Made by a program: the position numbers and the translations under genes
Notes under the pieces: generated by a model
Database searches by the model: none
What the model saw: only the letters and a program-made list of their open reading frames with translations
Told to the model about the DNA's origin: nothing
In this document: piece after piece, positions 1 to 61,614 of the stretch
Layout of the letters: each line of letters opens with the position of its first letter
How positions within the stretch are numbered: the first letter of the stretch is position 1
NCBI GenBank assembly: GCA_963827235.1
Contig: CAWHAE010000009.1
Span: 768,001-832,000, forward strand
DNA length: 64,000 nucleotides
Direction: 5' to 3'
Source: an uncultured bacterium
GTDB taxonomy: Bacteria; Chloroflexota; UBA5177; JANWHV01

Positions 1-493
1 AGGCGCTGGAAACGGCGCACTCTACCAGGCGCCCGCCGGCATCGACCTGATAGCGCCCCAGGGACTTGCGGCACACCGTGCCGGTGCTCGAGAACGGCTG
101 CTCATGCCGGCGTGACGCCGCCGCATCCGTCGCCGCGCCGTCCGGAATGAGATCCGGCTCCCCACTCGCATGCAATGGGCCCGCGGCCGGACGGGAGAGT
201 GCTGGCGGCTGGGGCCGGCCGGCGGGCGCGCCTGGACTATCGTCCTCGACGCTACCTGAGCGTGGCGTGTGCGTACCGGACGGGGCACGAGCCGCGACGC
301 TATTCGGATTCACCGGGCGTCCATGCCTGTTCTTCAGCGGCCGTGGCCTGCCCATGGCCCTTAACTGGCGGCGCAGGCTGCCTGTTCCATAGTCTTCCAG
401 GTCCTGCTCGTATTCCGCGTAATCATCGGTCTCGGACGAGGTTTCTTTGTCGAAATCGTCGAGCTCTACAGAGTCGCCGGTCAACGAACGCAT
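1..493 (-). CDS. Partial CDS (N-terminal part), probable ribosome small subunit-dependent GTPase RsgA-like protein with long acidic/low-complexity N-terminal extension
   Basis: Not in the ORF track because it runs off the window edge. ATG at 493 opens a stop-free frame: MRSLTGDSVELDDFDKETSSETDDYAEYEQDLEDYG...TGTVCRKSLGRYQVDAGGRLVECAVSSA. The last part resembles the RsgA N-terminal OB-fold (G-x-V...G-x-Y-x-V...C). GTPase motifs would lie outside the window. Confidence 0.55.
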   Translation of the reverse strand, partial: MRSLTGDSVELDDFDKETSSETDDYAEYEQDLEDYGTGSLRRQLRAMGRPRPLKNRHGRPVNPNSVAARAPSGTHTPRSGSVEDDSPGAPAGRPQPPALSRPAAGPLHASGEPDLIPDGAATDAAASRRHEQPFSSTGTVCRKSLGRYQVDAGGRLVECAVSSA

Positions 494-29142: not shown

Positions 29143-30063
29143 TCAGTTGATAACCAGGTATTGCAGCCTGATCGCCGAGCGAGCCGGGGCGCTGGCGCCG
29201 ATCACGAATTGAGCTGCACTCCGTGCCGCGATCCAGATCCGCTGGGCGTCACCAGGATCATCCAGCAGGACAAGCAGAATCAGGCTATCAGCCCCGGCCG
29301 CCGCGGCCGATACGGTCAGCATGCGCTCACCTTTTGGGAGGCAAACCTCCCCAATTGCGCAGCCATGCAGCCGTATGCGCCCCTCGACGTCCAGCGCAAT
29401 CCCGGTCGGACCCGTAGCCCGCGCACGCACGCCGATGCCCCGGGTGCTGCACCCGTCCACGGCGCAGCCGCTGGCGCTCCTGGCAACCAGGCTGTCGCCG
29501 GACGTGCTGGTGGCGTACACACCGTCACCGTCGCCCCCCTCGGCGAAGACAGCGGCCGGCCGCGGGGCCTGGCCGTTGCCCAGGGCAGCACCTCCCACCG
29601 CGTGGAGGCCGGTGCCCAGCGCGCTTTGCGCGTAGACGCCATTTGCCGGACCGAGGCTCATCGCCGTGACGCCGGCGCCACGCTCACTCAATGCGCTCAG
29701 CCCATCGCCTTCGCCGAAGCTCCGGCAGTAGGCGCCGGTGCCCTGGACGCTGGCGGCATAGAGGCCGTAGCCCTCGACACTGAAGGCGCGAAGATCGCTG
29801 CCGTCCTTCGCCGGCACGACTGCCGGCGTGGTACGGTCTCTCTCGCCCGTCGCAATGGGCGGCAGCTGCACGCCGGTGCCCTGTGTGCCGGCCGGGTTGG
29901 AAAGCAGCCCGCGCAGCGTGTGTACTTCGCGCCGCAGCCTGTCCACCTCGCGTCGCAGCCCGTTGGTCTCGCGCTGATGGCGCTGCTGTACCTGCCGGTG
30001 TTGCCGTGCGAGCGCCGCCTCTCTCGAATCGCCTACGTCCATTGGACCGCCCACCCGTGGCAT
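29143..30063 (-). CDS. Hypothetical protein: coiled coil, G.GV.A.S beta-helix-like repeats, fibre-tip-like C-terminal domain
   Basis: LRREVDRLRREV heptads; ~10-aa repeats (GYGLYAAS, GTGAYCRS, GAGVTAMS, GDGVYATS). Start may be 30042. Confidence 0.7.
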   Translation of the reverse strand: MPRVGGPMDVGDSREAALARQHRQVQQRHQRETNGLRREVDRLRREVHTLRGLLSNPAGTQGTGVQLPPIATGERDRTTPAVVPAKDGSDLRAFSVEGYGLYAASVQGTGAYCRSFGEGDGLSALSERGAGVTAMSLGPANGVYAQSALGTGLHAVGGAALGNGQAPRPAAVFAEGGDGDGVYATSTSGDSLVARSASGCAVDGCSTRGIGVRARATGPTGIALDVEGRIRLHGCAIGEVCLPKGERMLTVSAAAAGADSLILLVLLDDPGDAQRIWIAARSAAQFVIGASAPARSAIRLQYLVIN

Positions 30064-30249
30064 ACTCTATTCAGACTCGACCGGTGCCGTCGTTCCCCGA
30101 GGTTCGCATGTCGATTGTTCTCCCAGTCTGCTCCTTCACCCATCACCGCACCACGACGTCTGCTCACCGAGCACTCACCTTCCGGCGGTGAGCGGTCCTA
30201 CGATCGGGAGGGGAACCTCTTCTCTCGTTGCGAAAAGGCACGACCGCGC

Positions 30250-32802
30250 ATGATGGCTGATCCACCGCCGGCCAATGCTCAATTCGGCGCCCTCCTCAAG
30301 CGCTATCGTCTGGCGGCCGGACTGACCCAGGAAGACTTGGCGGAGCGCGCCGGTATCAGTGCTCGCGCGGTGAGCGATCTGGAACGGGATGGTAGCCGTA
30401 CACCGCGGCCAGACACGCTGGCCTTCCTTGCCCAGGCGCTGGGTCTGAGCGCGATGGAGCGAGCCGGCTTCATTGCGGCCGCACACCCCGAGGCGGGTGC
30501 TCCCACCACGCCGATTGCCGCGCCAGTCAGGGTCCTACCGTGGGCCGGCGTCCTGCCGGCACCGCCTTCACCGCTCGTTGGGCGCGATCAGGATGTCGCG
30601 ACTGTCGTCGCGCTGTTCGAGCGAGCTGACGTTCGCATGGCGACGCTCACCGGACCAGGCGGAGTCGGCAAGACGCGCTTGGCCCTGGCGGTGGCAGCGT
30701 CTCTCGCAAGCGCCGGCGAGCCGGTGTGTTGGGTGGACCTCTCGGCCCTGCGTGAAGCCGGCCTGCTGGGGTTTGCCGTGGCCCAGGCATTGGGCGTGCA
30801 GCCGGTGGGAACACGGCCGGTAGTGACGCTCCTGATGCACCACCTGCACAGCAGTCGGCTGATGCTGGTACTCGACAATTTCGAGCACGTGCTCCCCGCT
30901 GCCACGGTGCTCTCCACGCTGCTGGAAGGTTGCCCACACCTACGTATCATCGTGACGAGCCGCGCCCGGCTGCGCCTGCGCGCCGAGATCGATGTGCTGG
31001 TGCGACCGCTGCCTGTACCCGGCGCGGACCGCCTCCTGGCACCGGCCGAGCTGGCCAACGTGCCCTCGGTGCAGCTGTTTCTGGGCCGTGCCCAGGCCGT
31101 GGCGTCCGACGTGCGCCTGACGGCTGCTACCGGGCCGGTCATTGCCGAGATTTGCCGGCGGTTGGATGGTCTGCCCCTTGCGTTGGAGCTTGCGGCGGCA
31201 CGATCCCGGTTGCTGCCGCCGCAGGCCCTGCTGGCGCGCCTCGCCAGCAGGCTTGGGATACTGGTCGGCGGGGCGAACGATCTGCCGGCCCGCCAGCAGA
31301 CGCTGCGCGCGACCCTCGAATGGAGCGACGAGTTGCTTGGCGCGGAGGAGCGCCGGCTGTTTCGCCGGCTCGCCGTGTTTGCAGGCGGATGGACGCTGCA
31401 GGCGGCGGAGGCGGTGTGCGGCGGGGCCGGGATGGGTGATGTGCTCGGCGCGATGAGCACATTGCTTGACCAGAGCCTGATCCAGCGCCGTGACGCATCG
31501 GCCGATGAGCCGCGATACGACATGCTGCAGACGGTGCGCGAGTACGCACTCGAGCAGTTGGTTATCGGCGGGGAGCTGCCGGCGGTTCACCGGGCTCATG
31601 CCGCGTATTTCTTGTCCTTGCTTGCAGGCGCGGAGCAGGGGCTGATCGGTGCGGACCAAGCTGCATGGCTGAAGCTGCTCGAGCGCGAGCAGGAAAACCT
31701 TCGCACCGTGCTGGTATGGTCGCTGGAGACGCGGGAGCCCCGTGCCGGGCATGCGCCCGGCGTGCCGAGCGAATCGCGACCAGAGCCGCTCGAGATTGGA
31801 ATGCGTCTGGCAGGCGCGATCTGGCGGTTCTGGCATGTGCGCGGCCAGGTGACCGAAGGCCGTGCCTGGCTGAGCCGGCTCCTGGCCCGGCCGCTCGCAT
31901 TGCGTGATGCCGAAGAGGCCGCGCTGCGCGCCAAGGTGCTCGCAGCCGCCGCTGCGCTCGCCACGGAGCAGGGGGACCATACGGGTGCCGCCGACCTTGC
32001 AGGCGAAAGTCTTGACCTGTATGGCCGGCTCGGCGATCGACGTCGCGTCGCGTCAGTGCAGAATATCCTGGGTGCCGCGTTGATGCGGCTGGGCCGGTAC
32101 GCGCCTGCCGGCGCACTGTTCGAGGAAAGTCTCAGTTTGTTCAGAGCCCTGGAGATTCCCCAGAGCGTTGCCACCGTGCTGAACAACCTGGGCCTGCTGG
32201 CTCGGCACACGGGAGATCTCGCCCAAGCATCGGCATGCTATGCGGAGAGTCTTGCCATCAAGCGCGCGCTGGATGACCCGCGCGGCATCGCCGTGTCTCT
32301 GAACAATCTGGGTGATGTGGCGCTCGATCAGGGGAACCTTGAGCGGGCAACACAGTTGTTTGAGGAGAGTTTAGCGCTGTTCCGCCGGCTCAATGGCCAT
32401 TGGGGCATTGCGTTGCTGCTCACCAATCTTGCCGATGTCGCACGGGCCAGGGAGGACTATGGGCAGGCAGGGGACTTGTACCGGCAGAGTCTGGCGATGT
32501 ACCGGGACCAGAGCAACTATTTGGACGTGGCGGAGTGCCTGGACGGTTTGGCAGCCGTGGCCCTGGCGCAGGGCAGCCCGCACTCTGCCGCTCGCTTGCT
32601 TGCGGCGACAGCGGCCATTCGGGCCACGCTCGGTACCTCACAGACCCTCGCCGAACGCACGGAATACGACAGCACGATCGCCGCGGTACGCTCGGCCGCC
32701 GGCGACAGCGCATTTGCTAGCGCCTGGCAAGCAGGACAAGCGCTCTCCCCCGAGGACGCGATTGCGGAGGGGCTCTCCTGGCAGCCCGTTGCTTTGCCCT
32801 GA
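30250..32802 (+). CDS. XRE-HTH + STAND NTPase (NB-ARC-like) + TPR regulator
   Basis: FGALLKRYRLAAGLTQEDLAERAG.S.RA.SDLER; Walker A GPGGVGKT; Walker B LVLDNFE; ICRRLDGLPLALELAA; TPR LNNLG repeats. Confidence 0.92.
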   Translation: MMADPPPANAQFGALLKRYRLAAGLTQEDLAERAGISARAVSDLERDGSRTPRPDTLAFLAQALGLSAMERAGFIAAAHPEAGAPTTPIAAPVRVLPWAGVLPAPPSPLVGRDQDVATVVALFERADVRMATLTGPGGVGKTRLALAVAASLASAGEPVCWVDLSALREAGLLGFAVAQALGVQPVGTRPVVTLLMHHLHSSRLMLVLDNFEHVLPAATVLSTLLEGCPHLRIIVTSRARLRLRAEIDVLVRPLPVPGADRLLAPAELANVPSVQLFLGRAQAVASDVRLTAATGPVIAEICRRLDGLPLALELAAARSRLLPPQALLARLASRLGILVGGANDLPARQQTLRATLEWSDELLGAEERRLFRRLAVFAGGWTLQAAEAVCGGAGMGDVLGAMSTLLDQSLIQRRDASADEPRYDMLQTVREYALEQLVIGGELPAVHRAHAAYFLSLLAGAEQGLIGADQAAWLKLLEREQENLRTVLVWSLETREPRAGHAPGVPSESRPEPLEIGMRLAGAIWRFWHVRGQVTEGRAWLSRLLARPLALRDAEEAALRAKVLAAAAALATEQGDHTGAADLAGESLDLYGRLGDRRRVASVQNILGAALMRLGRYAPAGALFEESLSLFRALEIPQSVATVLNNLGLLARHTGDLAQASACYAESLAIKRALDDPRGIAVSLNNLGDVALDQGNLERATQLFEESLALFRRLNGHWGIALLLTNLADVARAREDYGQAGDLYRQSLAMYRDQSNYLDVAECLDGLAAVALAQGSPHSAARLLAATAAIRATLGTSQTLAERTEYDSTIAAVRSAAGDSAFASAWQAGQALSPEDAIAEGLSWQPVALP

Positions 32803-54525: not shown

Positions 54526-55044
54526 TTACCCGACGGTCGGGCCGGGCGAGACGGTCTTCTCGCCGTTGCCGGACCACGTTCCGGCAAGCATTGGTAGAGG
54601 GGTCACGTCTTTACGCAATCTCACGAACTGCACGTGCTCGGGCATCAGGTCGGCCAGGGTCGTGGTGTCCAGGGCCCCGGCTACCGCGTCGCGCACGCGC
54701 CGCCACAGCTCTTTGCTCCCGCACATGCTCTCGCGGCCGCACTGCATGGTGGCGCCGTCCATGGGAGCGCAGAGCATGGGAGCTATCGTCTCTTCCAGCA
54801 CGTCGATCACGTCGCTCATCACCACGTCCGACGGCGCACGGCTCAGCTCGTACCCACCATGCACGCCCTGGTGGCTGATCACGAGCCCGGCGCGGCGCAA
54901 TAAGGCCACTATTTGTTCCAGGTAGGGCAAGGGCATGCTCTGGTCGCGCGCGATCTCCGTGAGCGAGAGCGGCCCGAACCCGTAATGAACCGCAAGCTCG
55001 GTCATCACGCGCACACCGTATTCGCTGCGTTTAGAGAATTGCAT
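54526..55044 (-). CDS. Rrf2 family (IscR/SufR-like) transcriptional regulator
   Basis: YG.R.M..LA, YLEQ....L...GLV.S..G..GGY.L; three Cys (C-x9-C-x5-C). Confidence 0.92.
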
Positions 55045-55059
55045 CTCATGCCTCGTGGA

Positions 55060-55116
55060 AAAACTCTTACTACATTACTCAGGTTTTATCGTAGCACTCG
55101 ATCAGGGGCACGTCAA
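55060..55116 (-). promoter_or_regulatory. suf operon promoter and IscR-like operator
   Basis: Minus strand TTGACG-17 bp-TACGAT (with TGn extension), followed by the imperfect inverted repeat AAAACCTGAGTAATGTAGTAAGAGTTTT (55087-55060). Confidence 0.65.
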
Positions 55117-55290
55117 ACTCCGATATGGCTAGTAGGGGTTCGACCGTCGTGACAGAAGATCCGCGCTTGAGGCCGCGGACTGATGGCAGCCGGTGGCGCG
55201 CCGCGGGGCCGGATTTGCACGACCTGCAGCGGCTGAGACCCCGGTCGGAAGCTCCGGAGTATGCTATGAGTATTGCCGAAGGGCCCTTCG

Positions 55291-58149
55291 ATGAGCGATC
55301 TGAGCTACGACGTCTTTCTCTCCTACAACAGCAAAGACCGCACCGCTGTGACGGAGATTGCCCACGCGTTGCGGCAAGATGGGGTGGAGCCGTGGCTGGA
55401 TCACTGGCGCCTGACTCCCGGCGGCGACTGGCAGTCGGAGCTGGTCGCCGGCATGCGCAGCAGCCGCGCCTGTGCCGTATTTGTCGGACCGCACAGCGTC
55501 GGTGCCTGGTCCGCCATGGAAGTCCGCCTGGCGCTCGATCGGACTGCCAAGGACCCGGCGTTTCGCTGTTTTCCCGTGTTGCTGCCCGGGGTGCCGGAGC
55601 CGTTCGACCCCGACCTGTTGCCGCCGTTCCTCGGCGTGTTCACCTGGGTCAACTTCACCGGCGGTACGCAGGATCCCGTTGCCCTCCAACACCTGATCAG
55701 TGCTATTCGCGGCTTGGCGTTCGGCGTATCGGCGCCGCCCAGTGTCGCGAGCGCTACGATACCCGACCGGACAGACATACCGCCGCCGCCGTCGCCCGCG
55801 ACCCCTCCTCCGTCCAATCTGCCAGCCGCGGTCACGAGCTTCGTGGGGCGCGAGCAGGAACGCGTCCAGCTGACGTCCTTGCTCGAGCGTGACCTGGAGG
55901 CGGGAGGCTGCCGCCTGCTGACCCTGGTGGGGCCTGGAGGATGCGGCAAGACGCGACTGGCGCTGGCCGCTGCCGAAGCCGTGCGCCCGCGCTTTGCCGA
56001 CGGCGTCTGGCTGGCAAGCCTGGCGGCAATCGGCGATCCCGCCCTGGTGCCCGCGGAGGTGGCGGGCATTCTCAGCCTGCACGAAGAGCCCGGGCGATCG
56101 GTGCAGGCGACGGTCGCCGACTACGTGAAGTCGAGGACGCTGCTGCTGGTGCTGGACAACTGTGAGCACCTCGTGGAGGCAGTCGCGCGGCTGGCGACCA
56201 CGCTGCTGCCTGCCGCCCCTCATCTGCGCATACTGGCGAGCAGCAGGGAGCCGCTGGGTGTCGCGGGCGAGCAGACATACCGAGTGCCGTCACTGCAGGC
56301 CCCGGAGGCGGGTGCCGGGTGCGGCGCCGAGGAAGCGGCCGATTATCCGGCGGTGCGGCTGTTCGTGGAGCGCGCTCGGGCGTCCAAGCACGACTTCGCG
56401 CTCACGGACCAGAACGCACCGGCAGTGGCGGCGATCTGCGCCCGGCTCGATGGCCTTCCTCTTGCACTGGAGCTCGCGGCAGCGCGATTGAGCGTCCTCT
56501 CACCGGAGGCGATCGCCGGACGCCTGAGCGATCGCTTCAAGCTGCTGACCGGCGGCCCGCGCACCGCGCTTCCCCGGCAGCAGACCCTGCGGGCCGCACT
56601 GGACTGGAGCTACGATCTGCTGGCCGAGCCCGAGCAGGCGCTGCTGCGCGGTCTGAGCGTATTTGCAGGCGGCTGCACGCTCGAGGCGGCCGAAACGGTC
56701 TGTGCCTCCGGCGTCGTGGAGATCTGGGAAGTGCTGGATCTGCTGACCGCACTCGTCAACAAGTCATTGCTGCAAGTGGTCGACGTCGTGGAGGAGCCGC
56801 GGTACCGCCTGCTGGAGACCGTGCGCCAGTATGCCGCCGACCGACGCCAGGTCGCCGGTGAGAGCACGGCGCAGCAGAATCGGCTGCTGGCCTGGTGCGT
56901 GGAGTTGGCGCGCCATGCCGAGCCGGCCCTGCGAGGACCGGAGCAGGTCCGCTGGCTGGCCCTCCTGGAGGTCGAGCTGGACAACGTGCGCGCCGCGCTG
57001 GCCTGGAGCATGGACGATGCGGCGCATGCTGGCGACGGTCTGAAGCTCGCCGGACTGCTGAGTGACTTCTGGCCGGTACACGGGCATTTCGGCGAGGGTA
57101 GGCGGTGGCTGGAGAAGGCACTGGCAATCTCTCCAGCATCCGAGGACGAGGCTCGCATCCGCGCCCAGGTGGCAGCCGGCAAGCTGGCACACAACATGGG
57201 AGATTACACGGACGCGCGTGCACACTACGAGGCCGCGCTGGCGTCACGGCGTCGCGGCGGCGACGAAGCGGGCGCGGCGGATACGCTACGCCGGCTGGGC
57301 AACGTGGCGATGAGGCAGAGCCGCTTCGCCGAGGCTGTGGCCTTCTACCGGCAGAGCCTCCAGATCTGCTCGGCTTTGGCAGATCGCTGGGGCGAGGCGG
57401 CAGCCCATAACAACCTCGGTATGGTGGCGGATACGAGCGGCGACCTCGCCGAAGCCGCGCAGCAGTATTCCGAGGCCTTGGCAGTGTTTCGAGCCGAGCA
57501 GGACCATTGGAGCACGGCCTCGGTGCTCAACAACCTGGGACTACTAGCGTACGAGCAGGGCGATTACGCTCGGGCGGCAGCATACCTCGACGAAGCACTG
57601 CGTATCCGGCGCGGCCTGGAAGACAAGCCGGGAATGGCAGAGACGATGGACAACCTGGCCCTCGCGGCGTTCGACGGAGGCGACGCCACCAGGGCACGGG
57701 CGCTGTACGAAGAGAGCCTCTCGCTGAGCAGGACAATGGGAAACAAGGCTATGGTGGCCCTGGCGTGCCAGAATCTTGCCGAGATATTGCAGGCGGAGGG
57801 CGACGGCACCGAAGCCTCTCGCTTACTCCTGGAAGCGCTCGCCCTGCGACAGGCTCTGGGCGACACGCTTGGCCTGGCCGCCGCGCTCGAGGGGGTGGCG
57901 ATGACTCTCGCCGTGGGCACCCGGCACGAGGCGGCGGTACGCCTGCTTGGCGCCGCTTCGTCGCTGCGCGCCGGGATAAGCACGCCCGTTGCATCTCCGC
58001 AGCGTGCCGCCTACGAGCATCTCGTGACCGAAGCACGATCGGTGCTTGGGGCCGAGCGTTACGACGCCGCTTGGGAGGCGGGTCGCACGCTCAGCAGCGA
58101 GCAGGCCGTCGCACTGGCGCGCCAAGAGATCTGGCTCCCGGACGGCTGA
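55291..58149 (+). CDS. TIR + STAND NTPase (NB-ARC-like) + TPR protein
   Basis: YDVFLSY...D.......L...G...WLD...PG..W...L......A.F.G......W...E (TIR with Glu at the catalytic position); GPGGCGKT; LVLDNCE; TPRs. Confidence 0.92.
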   Translation: MSDLSYDVFLSYNSKDRTAVTEIAHALRQDGVEPWLDHWRLTPGGDWQSELVAGMRSSRACAVFVGPHSVGAWSAMEVRLALDRTAKDPAFRCFPVLLPGVPEPFDPDLLPPFLGVFTWVNFTGGTQDPVALQHLISAIRGLAFGVSAPPSVASATIPDRTDIPPPPSPATPPPSNLPAAVTSFVGREQERVQLTSLLERDLEAGGCRLLTLVGPGGCGKTRLALAAAEAVRPRFADGVWLASLAAIGDPALVPAEVAGILSLHEEPGRSVQATVADYVKSRTLLLVLDNCEHLVEAVARLATTLLPAAPHLRILASSREPLGVAGEQTYRVPSLQAPEAGAGCGAEEAADYPAVRLFVERARASKHDFALTDQNAPAVAAICARLDGLPLALELAAARLSVLSPEAIAGRLSDRFKLLTGGPRTALPRQQTLRAALDWSYDLLAEPEQALLRGLSVFAGGCTLEAAETVCASGVVEIWEVLDLLTALVNKSLLQVVDVVEEPRYRLLETVRQYAADRRQVAGESTAQQNRLLAWCVELARHAEPALRGPEQVRWLALLEVELDNVRAALAWSMDDAAHAGDGLKLAGLLSDFWPVHGHFGEGRRWLEKALAISPASEDEARIRAQVAAGKLAHNMGDYTDARAHYEAALASRRRGGDEAGAADTLRRLGNVAMRQSRFAEAVAFYRQSLQICSALADRWGEAAAHNNLGMVADTSGDLAEAAQQYSEALAVFRAEQDHWSTASVLNNLGLLAYEQGDYARAAAYLDEALRIRRGLEDKPGMAETMDNLALAAFDGGDATRARALYEESLSLSRTMGNKAMVALACQNLAEILQAEGDGTEASRLLLEALALRQALGDTLGLAAALEGVAMTLAVGTRHEAAVRLLGAASSLRAGISTPVASPQRAAYEHLVTEARSVLGAERYDAAWEAGRTLSSEQAVALARQEIWLPDG

Positions 58150-58311
58150 TGCGCCGACTTCGTCAAACAGCGTGAGATCGGATCATACCGGCAAACTCGG
58201 CGTCACGCGCTGAAGGCTCATGCGTCGCCAAATAGGCCCAGGGGGAATGGCTTGCTTCAGACCGCGTGTGCGGCGGCCTGCACGCTGAGTCGCACACGGA
58301 CACAGGACCAC

Positions 58312-58342
58312 TTGCCATACAATCCTACTACTAGTAGGATTG
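58312..58342 (+). promoter_or_regulatory. TA operon promoter with perfect inverted-repeat operator (leaderless start)
   Basis: TTGCCA-17 bp-TAGGAT, ATG 6 nt downstream; CAATCCTACTA-c-TAGTAGGATTG at 58320-58342. Confidence 0.75.
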
Positions 58343-58346
58343 AGCC

Positions 58347-58568
58347 ATGAGGTATACCAAGATCTCGGTCACGCTCGCACCGGAAGTCGAGGCTGAGTTG
58401 CGCCGAGTCGCGGGCGCCCGCGGCATGTCGGCGTTCGTCAATGAGGCGGTCCGGCAGCGGCTCCAGGCTTCCCGGCTGCGCAACATGCTCGACGAGATGG
58501 CAGTGGAATCTGGCCCGATTCCCGAGGACGTACGTCGAGAGGTTGACGGCCTGATGTGGCCAGACTGA
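58347..58568 (+). CDS. Ribbon-helix-helix antitoxin (VapB-like)
   Basis: KISVTL...V..EL......RG.SAFVNEAV; overlaps the toxin start. Confidence 0.8.
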   Translation: MRYTKISVTLAPEVEAELRRVAGARGMSAFVNEAVRQRLQASRLRNMLDEMAVESGPIPEDVRREVDGLMWPD

Positions 58569-58945
58569 TTCTCGACAGCGGAGCCGTGTTTGCGCTCGCC
58601 GCCAACCAGCCACGAGCACGGCAGTTCGTAGAACGCGCCCTGCGCGAGCGCACACCGCTGATCATCCCGGCCGTTGTCCTCGCGGAGACCACTCGCGGCA
58701 GTGGCCGGGATGCGCGAGTCAACCGGGTGGTGAGGACAGTGCATGACATCACGCCTGTTACTGAGAACATCGCGCGCGAGGCAGGTCGCCTGCTTGCTGC
58801 CGCAAACGTCGGCAACGCTACCGTGGATGCGCTGATCGCGGCAGAGGCGGTGCTGCATGGGCCGGCAATCATCCTGACCGGCGATCCGGCCGACATCATT
58901 GCGCTTGTGGATGATCGTCCGCACGTTCGCGTCTATTCGATCTGA
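58556..58945 (+). CDS. PIN-domain toxin (VapC-like)
   Basis: LILDSG, V.AE, VDALIAA, ILTGD..D acidic tetrad. Confidence 0.85.
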   Translation: MARLILDSGAVFALAANQPRARQFVERALRERTPLIIPAVVLAETTRGSGRDARVNRVVRTVHDITPVTENIAREAGRLLAAANVGNATVDALIAAEAVLHGPAIILTGDPADIIALVDDRPHVRVYSI

Positions 58946-59041: not shown

Positions 59042-61474
59042 TCAGTCGACGGCCGCCAGGCTGAACAGCAAGGAATCGGCTTCCTGCTCGTCGAGCAACG
59101 TGGCCTTGGGATCGACGAGACGCGTGACGACGACCTCCACGCGTCCGCTGCTGTCCAGCAGGGCGAAGCCGTCGCCGCGATAGGCGTGGTGTGCCGGAAT
59201 CACACTGACCACCACGCCCGCCAGCGACTGCAGCGCGAGGGGACTGACTCCCGTGCCGACGAAGGGCGCGCTCGGCTTGAGCGAGCGCAGGGCATCCGCC
59301 TGCAGCTGCGCCGCGGTGGGCGCTTTGGTGTAGCGGCGAGCCGAGAGGGTGATGGTGAGTCGCCCGTCCCGCGATCCGAAAACGTCCGTGGTGCCCACCC
59401 GGTGCCACGTCACGGGCAGGTCAACGCGCAAGTGCGGCAGGGACAGCGTTCTGCTCGTCACGCGGGACGCCGCGATTTCGCTGCGCGCCCCAAGCATCGT
59501 GACCAGCCCGCCCTGCACGCCCGGCATGAGGCGTGCCAGTGTCTTCAGGGTGACCTGGGCGGTTGCACTGGGAATGGCAAAGCCGAACTGGCCGGGCATT
59601 GCGCAGGTCGTCTGCTCATCGAGCCTCAGGGTATTGATACCCACGACCAGGCCGCGAGTGTCGAGCAGCGGGCCGCCGCTGTTGCCCTGGGTGACGGACG
59701 CGTCGTGCTGGATCCAGCCTGCTCCACCGCACTTGCCAAGATCACGGGCTGTGGCATTGATCTCGCCGCGCGTGACGGAAGGAGGGCCGAGCAGGTTGAA
59801 GGCATCGCCGTAGCCCACGGCCACGACCGGCGTGAGCGGTGTGAGCCTGGTCGAATCGCCCCACTGCAACGGCCGCAGCGTGGTCGGCTGTATGAGCAGG
59901 ATTGCCAGGTCTTGCGTGGTGCCGTCGTCCGCGCCGGTAGTGAGCAAGGCTACTACCGAGTAGCGCGTGCGGCCATCGGGCAGATAGACGGCGAGCTTAT
60001 CCCTGGTGACGCCGTCGACCACGTGCTTGTTCGTGGCAAGGTAGGTACCGGTGGCGTCGGCGCGAATGACAAAGGCACTGCCCTGCTCGGCCAGGTCCCC
60101 AGGCAGCAGTTTCACCACGCGGAGCACGCTAGGCTCAACGCATTTGCCGAACGTGGCCGTGGTGATCGCGGCGCAGCCGGTAGCAGGTGGAAGCGGGACG
60201 TGGTGTGGCGACGGCGTCGGACCGCCGGGTGGTGGCGCGGCCGGGCTCGCGGACGGTCCCACGATCGCCATGCTCTTGCCGTAGGCGGCTCCGATGCTCT
60301 GGACATGCCCGAGCCCGGCTACGCGCTGCGGACTTCCGCGGCTGTTGGTCGTGGTGTCGCCGAGCTGCCCATACTCGTCGTCGCCCCAAGCCCAGACCGA
60401 GCCGTTGGCCAGCAGGGCCAGACTATGAGAGGAACCGGCGGCAATTGCCGTCACGCCACTCAACCCGGCGACCTGCTGCGGGCTGCTGCGCATGTACACG
60501 TTGGCCACTTCGGGGCTGATGCCGAGCTGGCCGTAGCGATTGTTGCCCCACGCCCACACGGTGCCGTTCTGCGCCAGCGCCAGTACGTGGCCTGCACCGG
60601 CGGCAAGGGCTTTCACGCCGCTCAGGCCGGGAACGAGCAGCGGCTTGGCGACGCTACTGCCGGTAATCGTGTCGTCTTCCCCCAGCTGGCCGTACTCGTT
60701 ATTGCCCCAGGCCCAGACCGATCCGTCCCTCGCCACCGCCAGACTGAACGAATCGCCCGCGGCGACGACACGCGCCGTGGGTAGGCCGGGCACCTGCTGC
60801 GGCAAGCTGCGCCGGTAGGCCGCGCTCTGAGGCACGCCGAGCTGGCCGTAGCCGTTGTCGCCCCACGCCCAGACGGTGCCGTCATTCTTCAGTGCCAGAC
60901 CAAAGCCGGCGCCGGCGGCGATTTGCTTTACGCCGCTCAGACCGGCAACACGCTGCGGCACGACGCTTCTGTACGATGCCGTGGGATCGATGCCGAGCTG
61001 GCCCAGTTGGTTCTCTCCCCAGGCCCAAACCGTGCCGTCCGTCGCCAGCGCCAGGCTGAAATAGTCGCCCGCGGCCACGGCGCGTACGCTCTTCAACCCG
61101 GCTACCTGCTGTGGAATGCCGAATCCGGTGCTGTTGGGGCCGAGGCCGAGCTGGCCATAGCCGTTGTTGCCCCAGACCCACAGCGATCCGTCCGTGGTCA
61201 CCGCCAGCACGTGACTGGAGCCTGCCGTGACGGCGCGCGCGCCACTCAGCCCGGGCACGCGCCACGGGCTGAGCCGGTTGGTCGTGCTGCCGTCGGCTAT
61301 CTCACCACTGCCGTTGTAGCCCCATATCCAGACAGTCGCGCTCGATGCCGCCCGGACCACGGAGCCCATGGACGACGCCTGCGTCGCCGGAAGCGCGGCC
61401 GGCACCGCCAGGAACAACGCGCAGAGCAGCGCGCCGCGGGCCAGAAGAGAGGTGACCAAAGACGATCCCCGCAT
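59042..61474 (-). CDS. Secreted RCC1-repeat beta-propeller + trypsin-like serine protease
   Basis: Signal peptide; ~7 repeats AAG...SLAL..DG.VWAWG.N.YGQLG; triad TNKH / QDLA / GNSGG; extra C-terminal domain. Confidence 0.88.
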   Translation of the reverse strand: MRGSSLVTSLLARGALLCALFLAVPAALPATQASSMGSVVRAASSATVWIWGYNGSGEIADGSTTNRLSPWRVPGLSGARAVTAGSSHVLAVTTDGSLWVWGNNGYGQLGLGPNSTGFGIPQQVAGLKSVRAVAAGDYFSLALATDGTVWAWGENQLGQLGIDPTASYRSVVPQRVAGLSGVKQIAAGAGFGLALKNDGTVWAWGDNGYGQLGVPQSAAYRRSLPQQVPGLPTARVVAAGDSFSLAVARDGSVWAWGNNEYGQLGEDDTITGSSVAKPLLVPGLSGVKALAAGAGHVLALAQNGTVWAWGNNRYGQLGISPEVANVYMRSSPQQVAGLSGVTAIAAGSSHSLALLANGSVWAWGDDEYGQLGDTTTNSRGSPQRVAGLGHVQSIGAAYGKSMAIVGPSASPAAPPPGGPTPSPHHVPLPPATGCAAITTATFGKCVEPSVLRVVKLLPGDLAEQGSAFVIRADATGTYLATNKHVVDGVTRDKLAVYLPDGRTRYSVVALLTTGADDGTTQDLAILLIQPTTLRPLQWGDSTRLTPLTPVVAVGYGDAFNLLGPPSVTRGEINATARDLGKCGGAGWIQHDASVTQGNSGGPLLDTRGLVVGINTLRLDEQTTCAMPGQFGFAIPSATAQVTLKTLARLMPGVQGGLVTMLGARSEIAASRVTSRTLSLPHLRVDLPVTWHRVGTTDVFGSRDGRLTITLSARRYTKAPTAAQLQADALRSLKPSAPFVGTGVSPLALQSLAGVVVSVIPAHHAYRGDGFALLDSSGRVEVVVTRLVDPKATLLDEQEADSLLFSLAAVD

Positions 61475-61614
61475 AGCAGCACCCCCAGGATGTTGGTGCC
61501 GGCAACAGCCACCCGGGCCGAGGGTTGCCGAGCCCTGATCGAGAGTGCCGGTAGGATTGCGGGCGGTGACGCACGTTGCCTTCCGGAAGCAGGCGCCGGC
61601 ACGATTCACACACC

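Follow-up and report, generated by a model that had tools for sequence, protein, structure and literature searches.

We analyzed a 64,000-nucleotide stretch of DNA (the window) from an uncultured Chloroflexota bacterium (contig CAWHAE010000009.1 of assembly GCA_963827235.1, positions 768,001 to 832,000), in which one gene encodes a TIR domain, a proline-rich linker, a STAND NTPase and an array of TPR repeats (Table 1). The gene is a single open reading frame (ORF) at window positions 55291-58149 of the forward strand, with 952 codons from an ATG at 55291, and its frame is open from an in-frame TTG at 55273 through 58149. The ATG at 55291 is the likely start because its context, 'TCGATGAGCGATC', is kept in a same-genus relative (genome G001), where nothing else close to the gene on its upstream side is conserved. 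Chance can be set aside as the origin of this ORF, since its GC3 (G+C content at third codon positions) is 0.80, all 8000 of the 8000 candidates scored in a whole-protein search were homologues at E ≤ 1e-3, and its ratio of non-synonymous to synonymous substitution rates (dN/dS) is well below 1. The database homologues were named only 'tetratricopeptide repeat protein', and cluster names were uninformative. The window's own assembly (G000) comprises 7.98 Mb in 21 contigs and is 95.9% complete, with 9% contamination reported; because the focal contig is 1.3 Mb long and syntenic with G001, this contamination leaves the finding unaffected. A search of sequencing runs listed no RNA run, and DNA runs with only 5-10% of the sampled words.

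Table 1. Features of the TIR-STAND-TPR gene and its surroundings, in window positions
Feature	Residues	Position	Strand	Basis or remark
Whole gene, TIR - linker - NB-ARC-like STAND NTPase - TPR	952 aa	55291..58149	+	Stop codon 58147-58149; ORF list, Pfam
TIR domain	1-145	55291..55725	+	Pfam TIR_2; AlphaFold2 (AF2) model; Foldseek; Glu77 conservation
Glu77, predicted catalytic	77	55519-55521 (codon)	+	Motif W73-S-A-M-E77
Pro-rich linker	about 146-175	55726..55815	+	pLDDT < 50 at residues 146-156; least conserved segment
STAND NTPase module	176-600	55816..57090	+	'NLP..TSFVGRE' N-terminal motif, Walker A/B, SSR, GLPLA, winged helix plus helical domain
Walker A, GPGGCGKT	214-221	55930-55953	+
Walker B, LLLVLDNCEH	284-293	56140-56169	+
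Sensor-1-like SSR	317-319		+
GLPLA (GxP motif)	388-392		+
TPR repeat region, presumed ligand sensor	601-952	57091..58146	+	Pfam TPR_12, TPR_MalT
Intergenic region common to Rrf2-suf operon and TIR gene		55045..55290	.	Only suf-proximal part, up to about 55140, kept in G001
73-aa ORF, read as antitoxin		58347-58568	+	Position and size only; no Pfam hit at E 1e-4
PIN (VapC-like) ORF		58556-58945	+	Overlaps 73-aa ORF
RCC1-trypsin protein, up to 855 aa (longest ORF)		59042-61609	-	Seven RCC1 repeats, trypsin-like peptidase domain, N-terminal signal-peptide-like stretch

Residues 8-135 matched the Pfam family TIR_2 at 83.6 bits, where the cut-off is 28 (E 2e-23). An AlphaFold2 model of residues 1-160, for which 13 aligned TIRs served as input, had a pLDDT of 83 and a pTM of 0.80 and displayed the alternating strand-helix pattern of a TIR domain. 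When searched with Foldseek, the model matched MAL, AbTir (7uxu), SARM1, RUN1, TIR-STING and the SPARTA TIRs at a probability of 1.0, the TIR filament of the MAL adaptor (5uzb) being the best match; TM scores on the target reached 0.77-0.78, including those for AbTir, SARM1, TRR-2 and the SPARTA TIRs. By sequence (HMMER against PDB sequences), the nearest solved chains were Cat1 (E 3e-6), PdTIR, BtTir and AbTir, followed by ROQ1 and RUN1.

In solved TIR NADases, the catalytic residue is a conserved glutamate at the start of helix αC, in a W-x3-E context. The predicted equivalent here, Glu77, falls at the beginning of a model helix (residues 75-87), within its first turn, and HMMER aligned W73-x3-E77 with the W-x3-E of BtTir (7uxr; the Glu of 'NWTEYEL'); in the alignment with Cat1 the register was off by two residues and ambiguous. 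E77 was invariant in 13 of 13 aligned TIRs, two quite different sequence types included; the 150 nearest cluster representatives contain 162 TIR stretches, of which 154 have a Glu at position 77 and 157 a Trp at position 73. The fold and the conserved Glu of NADase-type TIRs are thus present, and NADase activity and self-association are predicted. A complex prediction with two copies of the TIR scored 0.00, which speaks neither for nor against self-association.

The linker that follows is marked by nine prolines in the 32 residues from 141 to 172. In the NTPase module, Pfam matched AAA_16 to residues 184-305 (34 bits against a cut-off of 32.6), whereas the NB-ARC match was weak and sub-threshold (14 bits against 23.5), as were those to AAA_22 and AAA_25; a phmmer search of the PDB sequences with the NTPase part returned nothing better than E 0.07. 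The G, K, T, D, N, E, R, G and P columns of the NTPase were invariant or nearly so in 56 homologues. The AF2 model of residues 170-600 had a pLDDT of 93 and resembled ADP-bound Apaf-1 (3sfz, residues 107-522) with a VIA Z of 28.0 over 381 residues and a root-mean-square deviation of 4.0 Å. Further VIA Z values were 25.5 for the NB-ARC of NRC1, 25.4 for resting NRC2, 24.8 for the STAND-TPR protein 6mfv and 23.6 for MalT, whereas activated resistosome and CED-4 chains scored lower (15-18), so that the best superpositions were with closed forms. Compared in this way with Apaf-1 and NRC1, the model has the NBD-HD1-WHD(-HD2) arrangement, i.e., a nucleotide-binding domain, a helical domain and a winged-helix domain, with or without a second helical domain. 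The predicted state is closed, like Apaf-1 or resting NRC2, with all nucleotide-binding motifs present, which counts in favor of the mechanism proposed below.

From about residue 598, Pfam matched TPR_12 (E 5.6e-37) and TPR_MalT; no HTH (helix-turn-helix), BTAD or Trans_reg_C domain was found in the protein by Pfam. In NCBIfam there was a far-sub-threshold, full-length similarity to a TPR protein (HaaT) associated with ribosomally synthesized and post-translationally modified peptides (RiPPs), and to the TPR of AfsR. The protein is thus quite literally a TIR, an NB-ARC-like switch and a TPR array. The first-pass annotation of this DNA, made from the letters alone, had described an N-terminal TIR keeping the Glu at the catalytic position (W.AMEV), a Pro-rich linker, a STAND NTPase and a TPR sensor at these positions. 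The ORF list, Pfam, motifs and models bear out that description in each of its parts: the Glu is E77, the linker has its prolines, the Walker A and B, SSR and GLPLA motifs are intact on what VIA indicates to be an NB-ARC-like fold, and the TPR families are matched, their role as sensor being presumed.

We looked for orthologues in 41 related genomes, a set that includes one unpublished genome (G018) on which no claim rests. Matches spanning query residues 1-240 occurred only in one genus, i.e., in G000, G001 (76%) and G003 (71%). In a 401-genome sample of the phylum, with only four candidates per genome scored, TIR plus NTPase matches came from those three same-genus genomes and from two genomes of a single other genus, G067 (one) and G045 (two). 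The sole full-length match in a scan of genome contigs (L001) lies on the same contig as the G003 match, which is 4.3 kb long and offers no usable context. A metagenome scan with an alignment of the TIR-bearing members, run on the NTPase pattern, yielded 78 loci, all matching from query residue 125 or later and none TIR-bearing.

An open frame was found in each of three species-level genomes, identity being 63-74%. Between G000 and G001, identity was 83% in the TIR, 61% in the linker (with 17 gap columns), 79% in the NTPase, 79% in the helical and winged-helix domains (HD/WH) and 67% in the TPR; against L001 the corresponding values were 75%, 48%, 64%, 74% and 53%. For comparison, the neighboring genes of G000 and G001 were 95% (SufB), 96% (SufC), 86% (Rrf2) and 69% (RCC1-trypsin) identical. 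By the Nei-Gojobori method, dN/dS was 0.13 for the TIR, 0.16 for the NTPase, 0.18 for HD/WH and 0.17 for the TPR, as against 0.05 for SufB and 0.24 for RCC1-trypsin, and for the whole gene against its G001 orthologue it was 0.18; these values are rough, dS being 0.7-1.3 and close to saturation. The gene is under purifying selection in all domains. The TIR is the most conserved domain and the TPR the least conserved and fastest evolving, as would be expected if the enzyme is constrained and the sensor diversifying. These results bear on the idea that we are looking at a recent, functionless accident of domain shuffling, or at a decaying gene. The combination is rare (five of the 150 nearest TIR representatives) and its orthologues are restricted to one genus among the 41 related genomes, but a frame that is open in three species-level genomes, with a dN/dS of 0.13-0.18 across domains and motifs intact, argues strongly the other way, and we give that idea almost no credence.

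To place the NTPase-winged helix-TPR body, or chassis, we labelled by hand, from precomputed Pfam lists, the N-termini of the 120 best homologues of the whole-protein search. A cyclase alone was present in 74, a TIR in 11 (the window's own included), an XRE-type HTH in eight, a BTAD in six, a BTAD plus cyclase in four, a protein kinase in four, an HTH plus cyclase in three, an OmpR-type winged helix in two and GerE in one; in seven none was recognized. In total, 81 had a cyclase and 24 a DNA-binding domain, the seven with both being counted in each. The source genome itself contains 87 stretches matching the focal protein. As paralogues we took the 29 best ORFs matching from the start of the NTPase, fragmentary, split and stop-containing copies being dropped; the NTPase-WH-TPR body of the focal protein was 36-53% identical to them. 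A scan of 28 of their N-termini (the 29th has only 19 residues ahead of the match) found an XRE-HTH in 18, a BTAD in eight, a partial cyclase in one and nothing in one, and a TIR in none of the 29. The statement made at the outset, that DNA-binding or cyclase domains are the usual fusion partners of this ATPase subfamily, is borne out (81 and 24 of the 120 homologues with cyclase and DNA-binding domains, respectively, and an HTH or BTAD in 26 of the 29 paralogues).

This family of STAND-TPR regulators is expanded in the 8-Mb genome to at least 29 ORFs, and several more copies are split or have stop codons. Seven of the eight BTAD paralogues also carry DUF6788, and four carry Trans_reg_C. One XRE-HTH-STAND-TPR paralogue lies in the window, within 26 kb of the TIR gene (29161-32802, +), and has a further N-terminal region of ~370 aa without a Pfam hit; a second lies within 11 kb, ~5 kb past the window end (G000:C9:836944-839958, -; L092:4944-7958).

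An exhaustive HMMER search with residues 1-150 retrieved 16,766 TIR representatives at E ≤ 1e-3, of which 226 reached E ≤ 1e-30; the best 150 were classified by phmmer with the focal protein and a paralogue as probes. An nSTAND1 module was present in 103, 72 of which also had WD40 repeats; five had an NTPase of the focal type (four of them with TPR), two gave weak matches, and 40 had no NTPase by the probes used, 30 of these 40 being shorter than 400 aa. Among 15 mid-length examples, the other TIR partners found by Pfam were FGE-sulfatase, CHASE3, Kelch, TRADD-N plus HTH_8, and triple-TIR. In the nearest TIR proteins the TIR is joined to TRADD-N, or to nSTAND1 together with a WD40, FGE-sulfatase or CHASE3 sensor; these are conflict-system architectures described in PMC8195603.

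On a tree of the NTPase-WH region (FastTree only, unrooted, top 120 homologues), the TIR label required seven changes, and well-supported branches (support ≥ 95) force at least four of them. Four representatives make up the focal clade (support 100), and the nearest rows without a TIR carried an HTH, an HTH plus cyclase, and no recognized N-terminal domain. The TIRs found on this chassis are of two sequence types. Because of the seven label changes, at least four of them forced, and because the two TIR types are unrelated in sequence, a TIR must have joined the chassis more than once, and we therefore argue that it is a workable output for this switch. By these comparisons the protein is a chimera, its body coming from a large family that usually has cyclase or DNA-binding outputs and its TIR from a clade of nSTAND1-WD40/FGE conflict systems.

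Two TIR-nSTAND1-WD40 genes occur in the source genome, encoding 1407 aa (G000:C16:70604-74828; L090:1605-5828, -) and 1399 aa (G000:C18:210848-215047; L091:1349-5548, +), and similar genes are present in G001, G003 and G004. Their TIRs belong to the focal clade and are about 45-54% identical to the focal TIR, the similarity ending at ~residue 145, the end of the TIR. Proteins such as these could be the partners of a non-catalytic TIR, which would recruit other TIR proteins by homotypic contact, as an adaptor or scaffold only, and would leave NAD+ uncleaved. Their presence, and the rank of the MAL adaptor filament as best Foldseek match, would suit such a role, but the retention of the Glu in 154 of the 162 clade stretches, in what is the most constrained domain of the protein, would not. 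To our knowledge, adaptor-only TIRs are not the established pattern in bacteria, which also counts against this proposal, and we consider it very unlikely.

On balance, we favor the view that the protein is a ligand-triggered, oligomerizing, NLR-like NADase whose depletion of NAD+ arrests or kills the cell. At rest it would be a cytoplasmic receptor, kept closed and monomeric by the NB-ARC-like NTPase (nucleotide-binding domain, helical domain and winged helix). Binding of a ligand to the C-terminal TPR would allow nucleotide exchange and oligomerization; the oligomer would bring the N-terminal TIRs together, forming composite active sites around Glu77 that cleave NAD+; and the depletion of NAD+, possibly with products of the ADP-ribose (ADPR) type, would lead to arrest or death of the cell. 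At the level of sequence, everything required of an oligomerization-activated TIR enzyme is in place. This view builds on the domain composition, intact motifs, folds, purifying selection and origin of each part described above, and we infer ligand-induced oligomerization, NADase chemistry and the cell-death outcome from Apaf-1, plant TIR-NLRs, AbTir/SARM1 and Avs proteins. The architecture makes a role in immunity plausible, but participation in anti-phage or other conflicts is the least certain step.

Bacterial NLR-like proteins combining a TIR, an AP-ATPase (NB-ARC) and TPR or WD40 repeats were reportedly recognized as a class, by computation, by Leipe and colleagues in 2004. Kaur et al. 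(2020/2021; PMC7159879, PMC8195603) treat this class as one of multicellular bacteria; an 'AP-ATPase with an N-terminal TIR domain' plus TPRs is already described in PMC7159879, and nSTAND1, with the TIR among its listed effector heads, is defined in PMC8195603. The focal protein is like these in its N-terminal TIR, central STAND NTPase and C-terminal repeats, in its occurrence in Chloroflexota and in a TIR clade common with nSTAND1-WD40/FGE proteins. It is unlike them in that its NTPase-TPR body comes from the cyclase- and HTH/BTAD-dominated subfamily, not nSTAND1, and in that its gene has no companions of the vWA-MoxR or peptide-processing kind, such as PMC7159879 and PMC8195603 describe. 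The order effector-NTPase-repeat has been described for defense STANDs in PMC13581612; the focal protein follows both that order and the TIR-AP-ATPase-TPR order of PMC7159879, and this counts in favor of an NLR-like receptor. The effector-STAND-TPR single-gene design is also that of Avs/AVAST and bNACHT STANDs, among which the TIR is an accepted effector type (PMC13581612; 10.64898/2025.12.03.692087), although the focal gene lacks a defense neighborhood. The general TIR-STAND-TPR design is therefore already known, and the focal protein is a new, uncharacterized member. We found no paper on this particular family, although the clade lists of PMC13581612 may already place it.

The protein can also be compared with plant TIR-NLRs (ROQ1, RPP1, WRR4A) and with Apaf-1. 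The likeness lies in the TIR plus NB-ARC fold, the TIR matching those of RUN1, ROQ1 and RPP1 and the NTPase model scoring VIA Z 16.7 and 16.5 against the NB-ARC of ROQ1 and RPP1, respectively. The expected working principle, a ligand-induced oligomer that activates a TIR NADase, would be the same as in the plant proteins, although here it is a prediction. However, the sensor is a TPR, not LRR or WD40, and identity is only 15-22%, which would make the protein an analogue or distant homologue of that group, not a member. We know of no EDS1-type downstream pathway in bacteria. With STAND regulators and cyclases (AfsR/SARP-type, XRE-HTH-ATPase-TPR and class III cyclase-ATPase-TPR proteins, with MalT as a distant solved example at the VIA Z given above) the protein shares a homologous NTPase-WH-TPR body, but it has no DNA-binding or cyclase domain, a TIR being present in that position. 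The TPR of AfsR matched it at E 8.5e-7; AfsR chains were matched by sequence through the TPR only and were not among the best 50 Foldseek/VIA matches listed for the NTPase model, which does not exclude them.

The kinship with cyclases raises the alternative that the activated TIR is a second-messenger synthase, making a diffusible NAD-derived signal (an isomer of cyclic ADP-ribose or an ADPR conjugate) to which a separate receptor or effector elsewhere responds. Where this protein has its N-terminal TIR, 81 of the 120 closest homologues of the chassis have a cyclic nucleotide cyclase, so the switch commonly drives the synthesis of nucleotide signals; TIRs are established signal producers in bacterial Thoeris systems (10.64898/2025.12.03.692087); and one Glu serves both chemistries. 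However, the gene has no adjacent or conserved candidate effector, its neighbors being suf genes, a secreted protease and a toxin-antitoxin (TA) pair that is not conserved, and in this it differs from Thoeris, in which the ThsB TIR is accompanied by an effector gene. Whereas the domain-level PADLOC matches of the protein at E ≤ 0.1 (TPR, SAVED_TIR, PDC-S66, bSEFIR, PDC-M71B and ThsB) do include ThsB, they do so only at E 0.064. The Thoeris survey 10.64898/2025.12.03.692087 set aside Avs-type STAND-fused TIRs and partnerless stand-alone TIRs, and held the discarded TIRs to be likely NAD+-depleting. We regard the synthase as unlikely, and retain the NAD+-depleting receptor as the preferred account.

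Upstream of the gene lies a minus-strand operon, Rrf2-SufC-SufB-SufD-SufS-SufU, whose first gene, Rrf2, ends at 55044; since Rrf2 is the first suf gene and on the minus strand, the TIR gene diverges from the promoter end of the suf block. The first-pass annotation had placed it at the end of that block, next to a TA pair. It does adjoin the block, at the promoter end, and a PIN ORF is present downstream, but the accompanying antitoxin is recognized by position and size only. G000 and G001 are nearly identical in that half of the common intergenic region which faces suf (window 55030-55140). This half, which includes an AT-rich block and a promoter-like site (55116-55088, -), is presumably the suf promoter controlled by Rrf2. 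Co-regulation of the TIR gene with suf through a common operator is unsupported, only the suf-proximal part of the region being conserved.

The gene order in G001, SufS-SufD-SufB-SufC-Rrf2 (-), TIR-STAND-TPR (+), RCC1-trypsin (-), GDPD (+), is that of the window minus a VapBC-like segment of about 0.9 kb. This segment is an indel, because G001 lacks it although the flanking genes are the same, and on the same ground VapBC was rejected as a functional partner. A 19-bp palindrome and a promoter-like site lie at 58312-58340, ahead of the two ORFs of the cassette (58300-58945, +). The RCC1-trypsin gene is a conserved neighbor in G001 but fast-evolving, as its identity and dN/dS above indicate; it was set aside as a partner because it is convergent and its product has a signal-peptide-like, hydrophobic N-terminal stretch.

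Homologue loci outside the genus are varied. At one, the neighbors are a pair of IS21 transposase genes and an HTH paralogue. Another (L206) lies beside a gene for a RES-domain toxin and genes of formate-dehydrogenase type; the RES toxin gene and an upstream 196-aa ORF without a Pfam hit (L206:8507-9734, -) are directly downstream of the TIR-STAND-TPR homologue and form a second TA-like pair beside such a gene. The third (L207; G045:C163:1-8042), an 8-kb contig from another Chloroflexota genus, carries three TIR genes, one of them that of the TIR-STAND-TPR homologue. Interspersed with these are genes for two nucleases, one of the Uma2 family (candidate PDC-S03 of PADLOC) and one of HNH type (similar to PtuB at domain level), and the contig looks like a cluster of conflict genes. 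One of the five loci examined is thus defense-like (one of the three outside the genus), which provides no basis for a claim of enrichment either way.

Several points weigh against an NAD+-depleting immune receptor. PADLOC found no defense system among the 49 ORFs of the window, domain-level matches being confined to the HTH paralogue and the trypsin domain, so the locus is no defense island, and its position is stable within the genus, beside housekeeping genes. No Avs (Avs1-5), bNACHT or other whole-protein model matched the protein at E ≤ 0.1 in PADLOC v2.0.0 (2023), which predates Avs7-21. Close relatives were not found in viral contigs with the protein as query, and a search with the chassis alignment found the chassis to be rare there (seven loci). 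No promoter-like site was seen for the TIR gene in a promoter scan that is weak for this phylum. The chassis is for the most part a device of transcriptional or cyclase signaling (26 of 29 paralogues), and the ligand could be endogenous or environmental, not viral; sequence, moreover, cannot separate NAD+ depletion from signal synthesis, and we found no biochemical or phenotypic data on any family member in the literature. The first-pass annotation had read the gene as an NAD-depleting immune or signaling receptor and had proposed defense-island association as a check. Architecture, chassis, TIR fold, Glu, NTPase and fast-evolving TPR agree with that reading; the association was not observed at this locus, with its housekeeping synteny in G001, and was seen at only the one out-of-genus locus described above.

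Some of the same points favor a physiological switch outside immunity, in which the TPR would sense an endogenous metabolite, peptide or stress and the TIR would tune NAD+ or trigger developmental or altruistic death in a filamentous or aggregating bacterium. The HTH or BTAD transcription factors built on the same chassis (26 of 29 paralogues), the place beside the suf operon, fixed in the genus and not mobile, and the lack of defense genes around the locus by PADLOC fit this well, and such architectures have been tied to the multicellular habit in PMC7159879 and PMC8195603. However, conflict systems are the typical setting of the other partners of the TIR clade (nSTAND1-WD40/FGE, TRADD-N), divergence is faster in the TPR than elsewhere in the protein, one homologue (L207) lies in a defense-like cluster, and no conserved regulatory element links the gene to suf, conservation of the intergenic region being limited to its suf-proximal part. 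The regulator-type chassis and housekeeping context keep this proposal alive, and we rate it as rather unlikely. A further reading, in which the TIR has replaced the DNA-binding or cyclase output of a STAND sensor of transcription-factor type and a small molecule from the cell or its environment, not a phage protein, triggers NAD+ cleavage or production of an NAD-derived messenger, seems to us quite unlikely. If it were true, it would mean a non-immune TIR signaling pathway, or a metabolically triggered death switch, in a filamentous Chloroflexota bacterium, and a natural example of regulator STANDs turning into NLR-like death receptors.

As it stands, the protein that we favor as an NLR-like NADase is one more uncharacterized TIR-STAND-TPR protein among many in the databases. 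If active, it would extend the bacterial relatives of plant TIR-NLRs by a representative from Chloroflexota. It would also show, in compact form, how effectors are swapped on a STAND switch, since the same body drives transcription in at least 26 paralogues of the genome and here carries a predicted NADase, and it would make directly testable the 'functional switches' between regulator and immune STAND clades that PMC13581612 infers.

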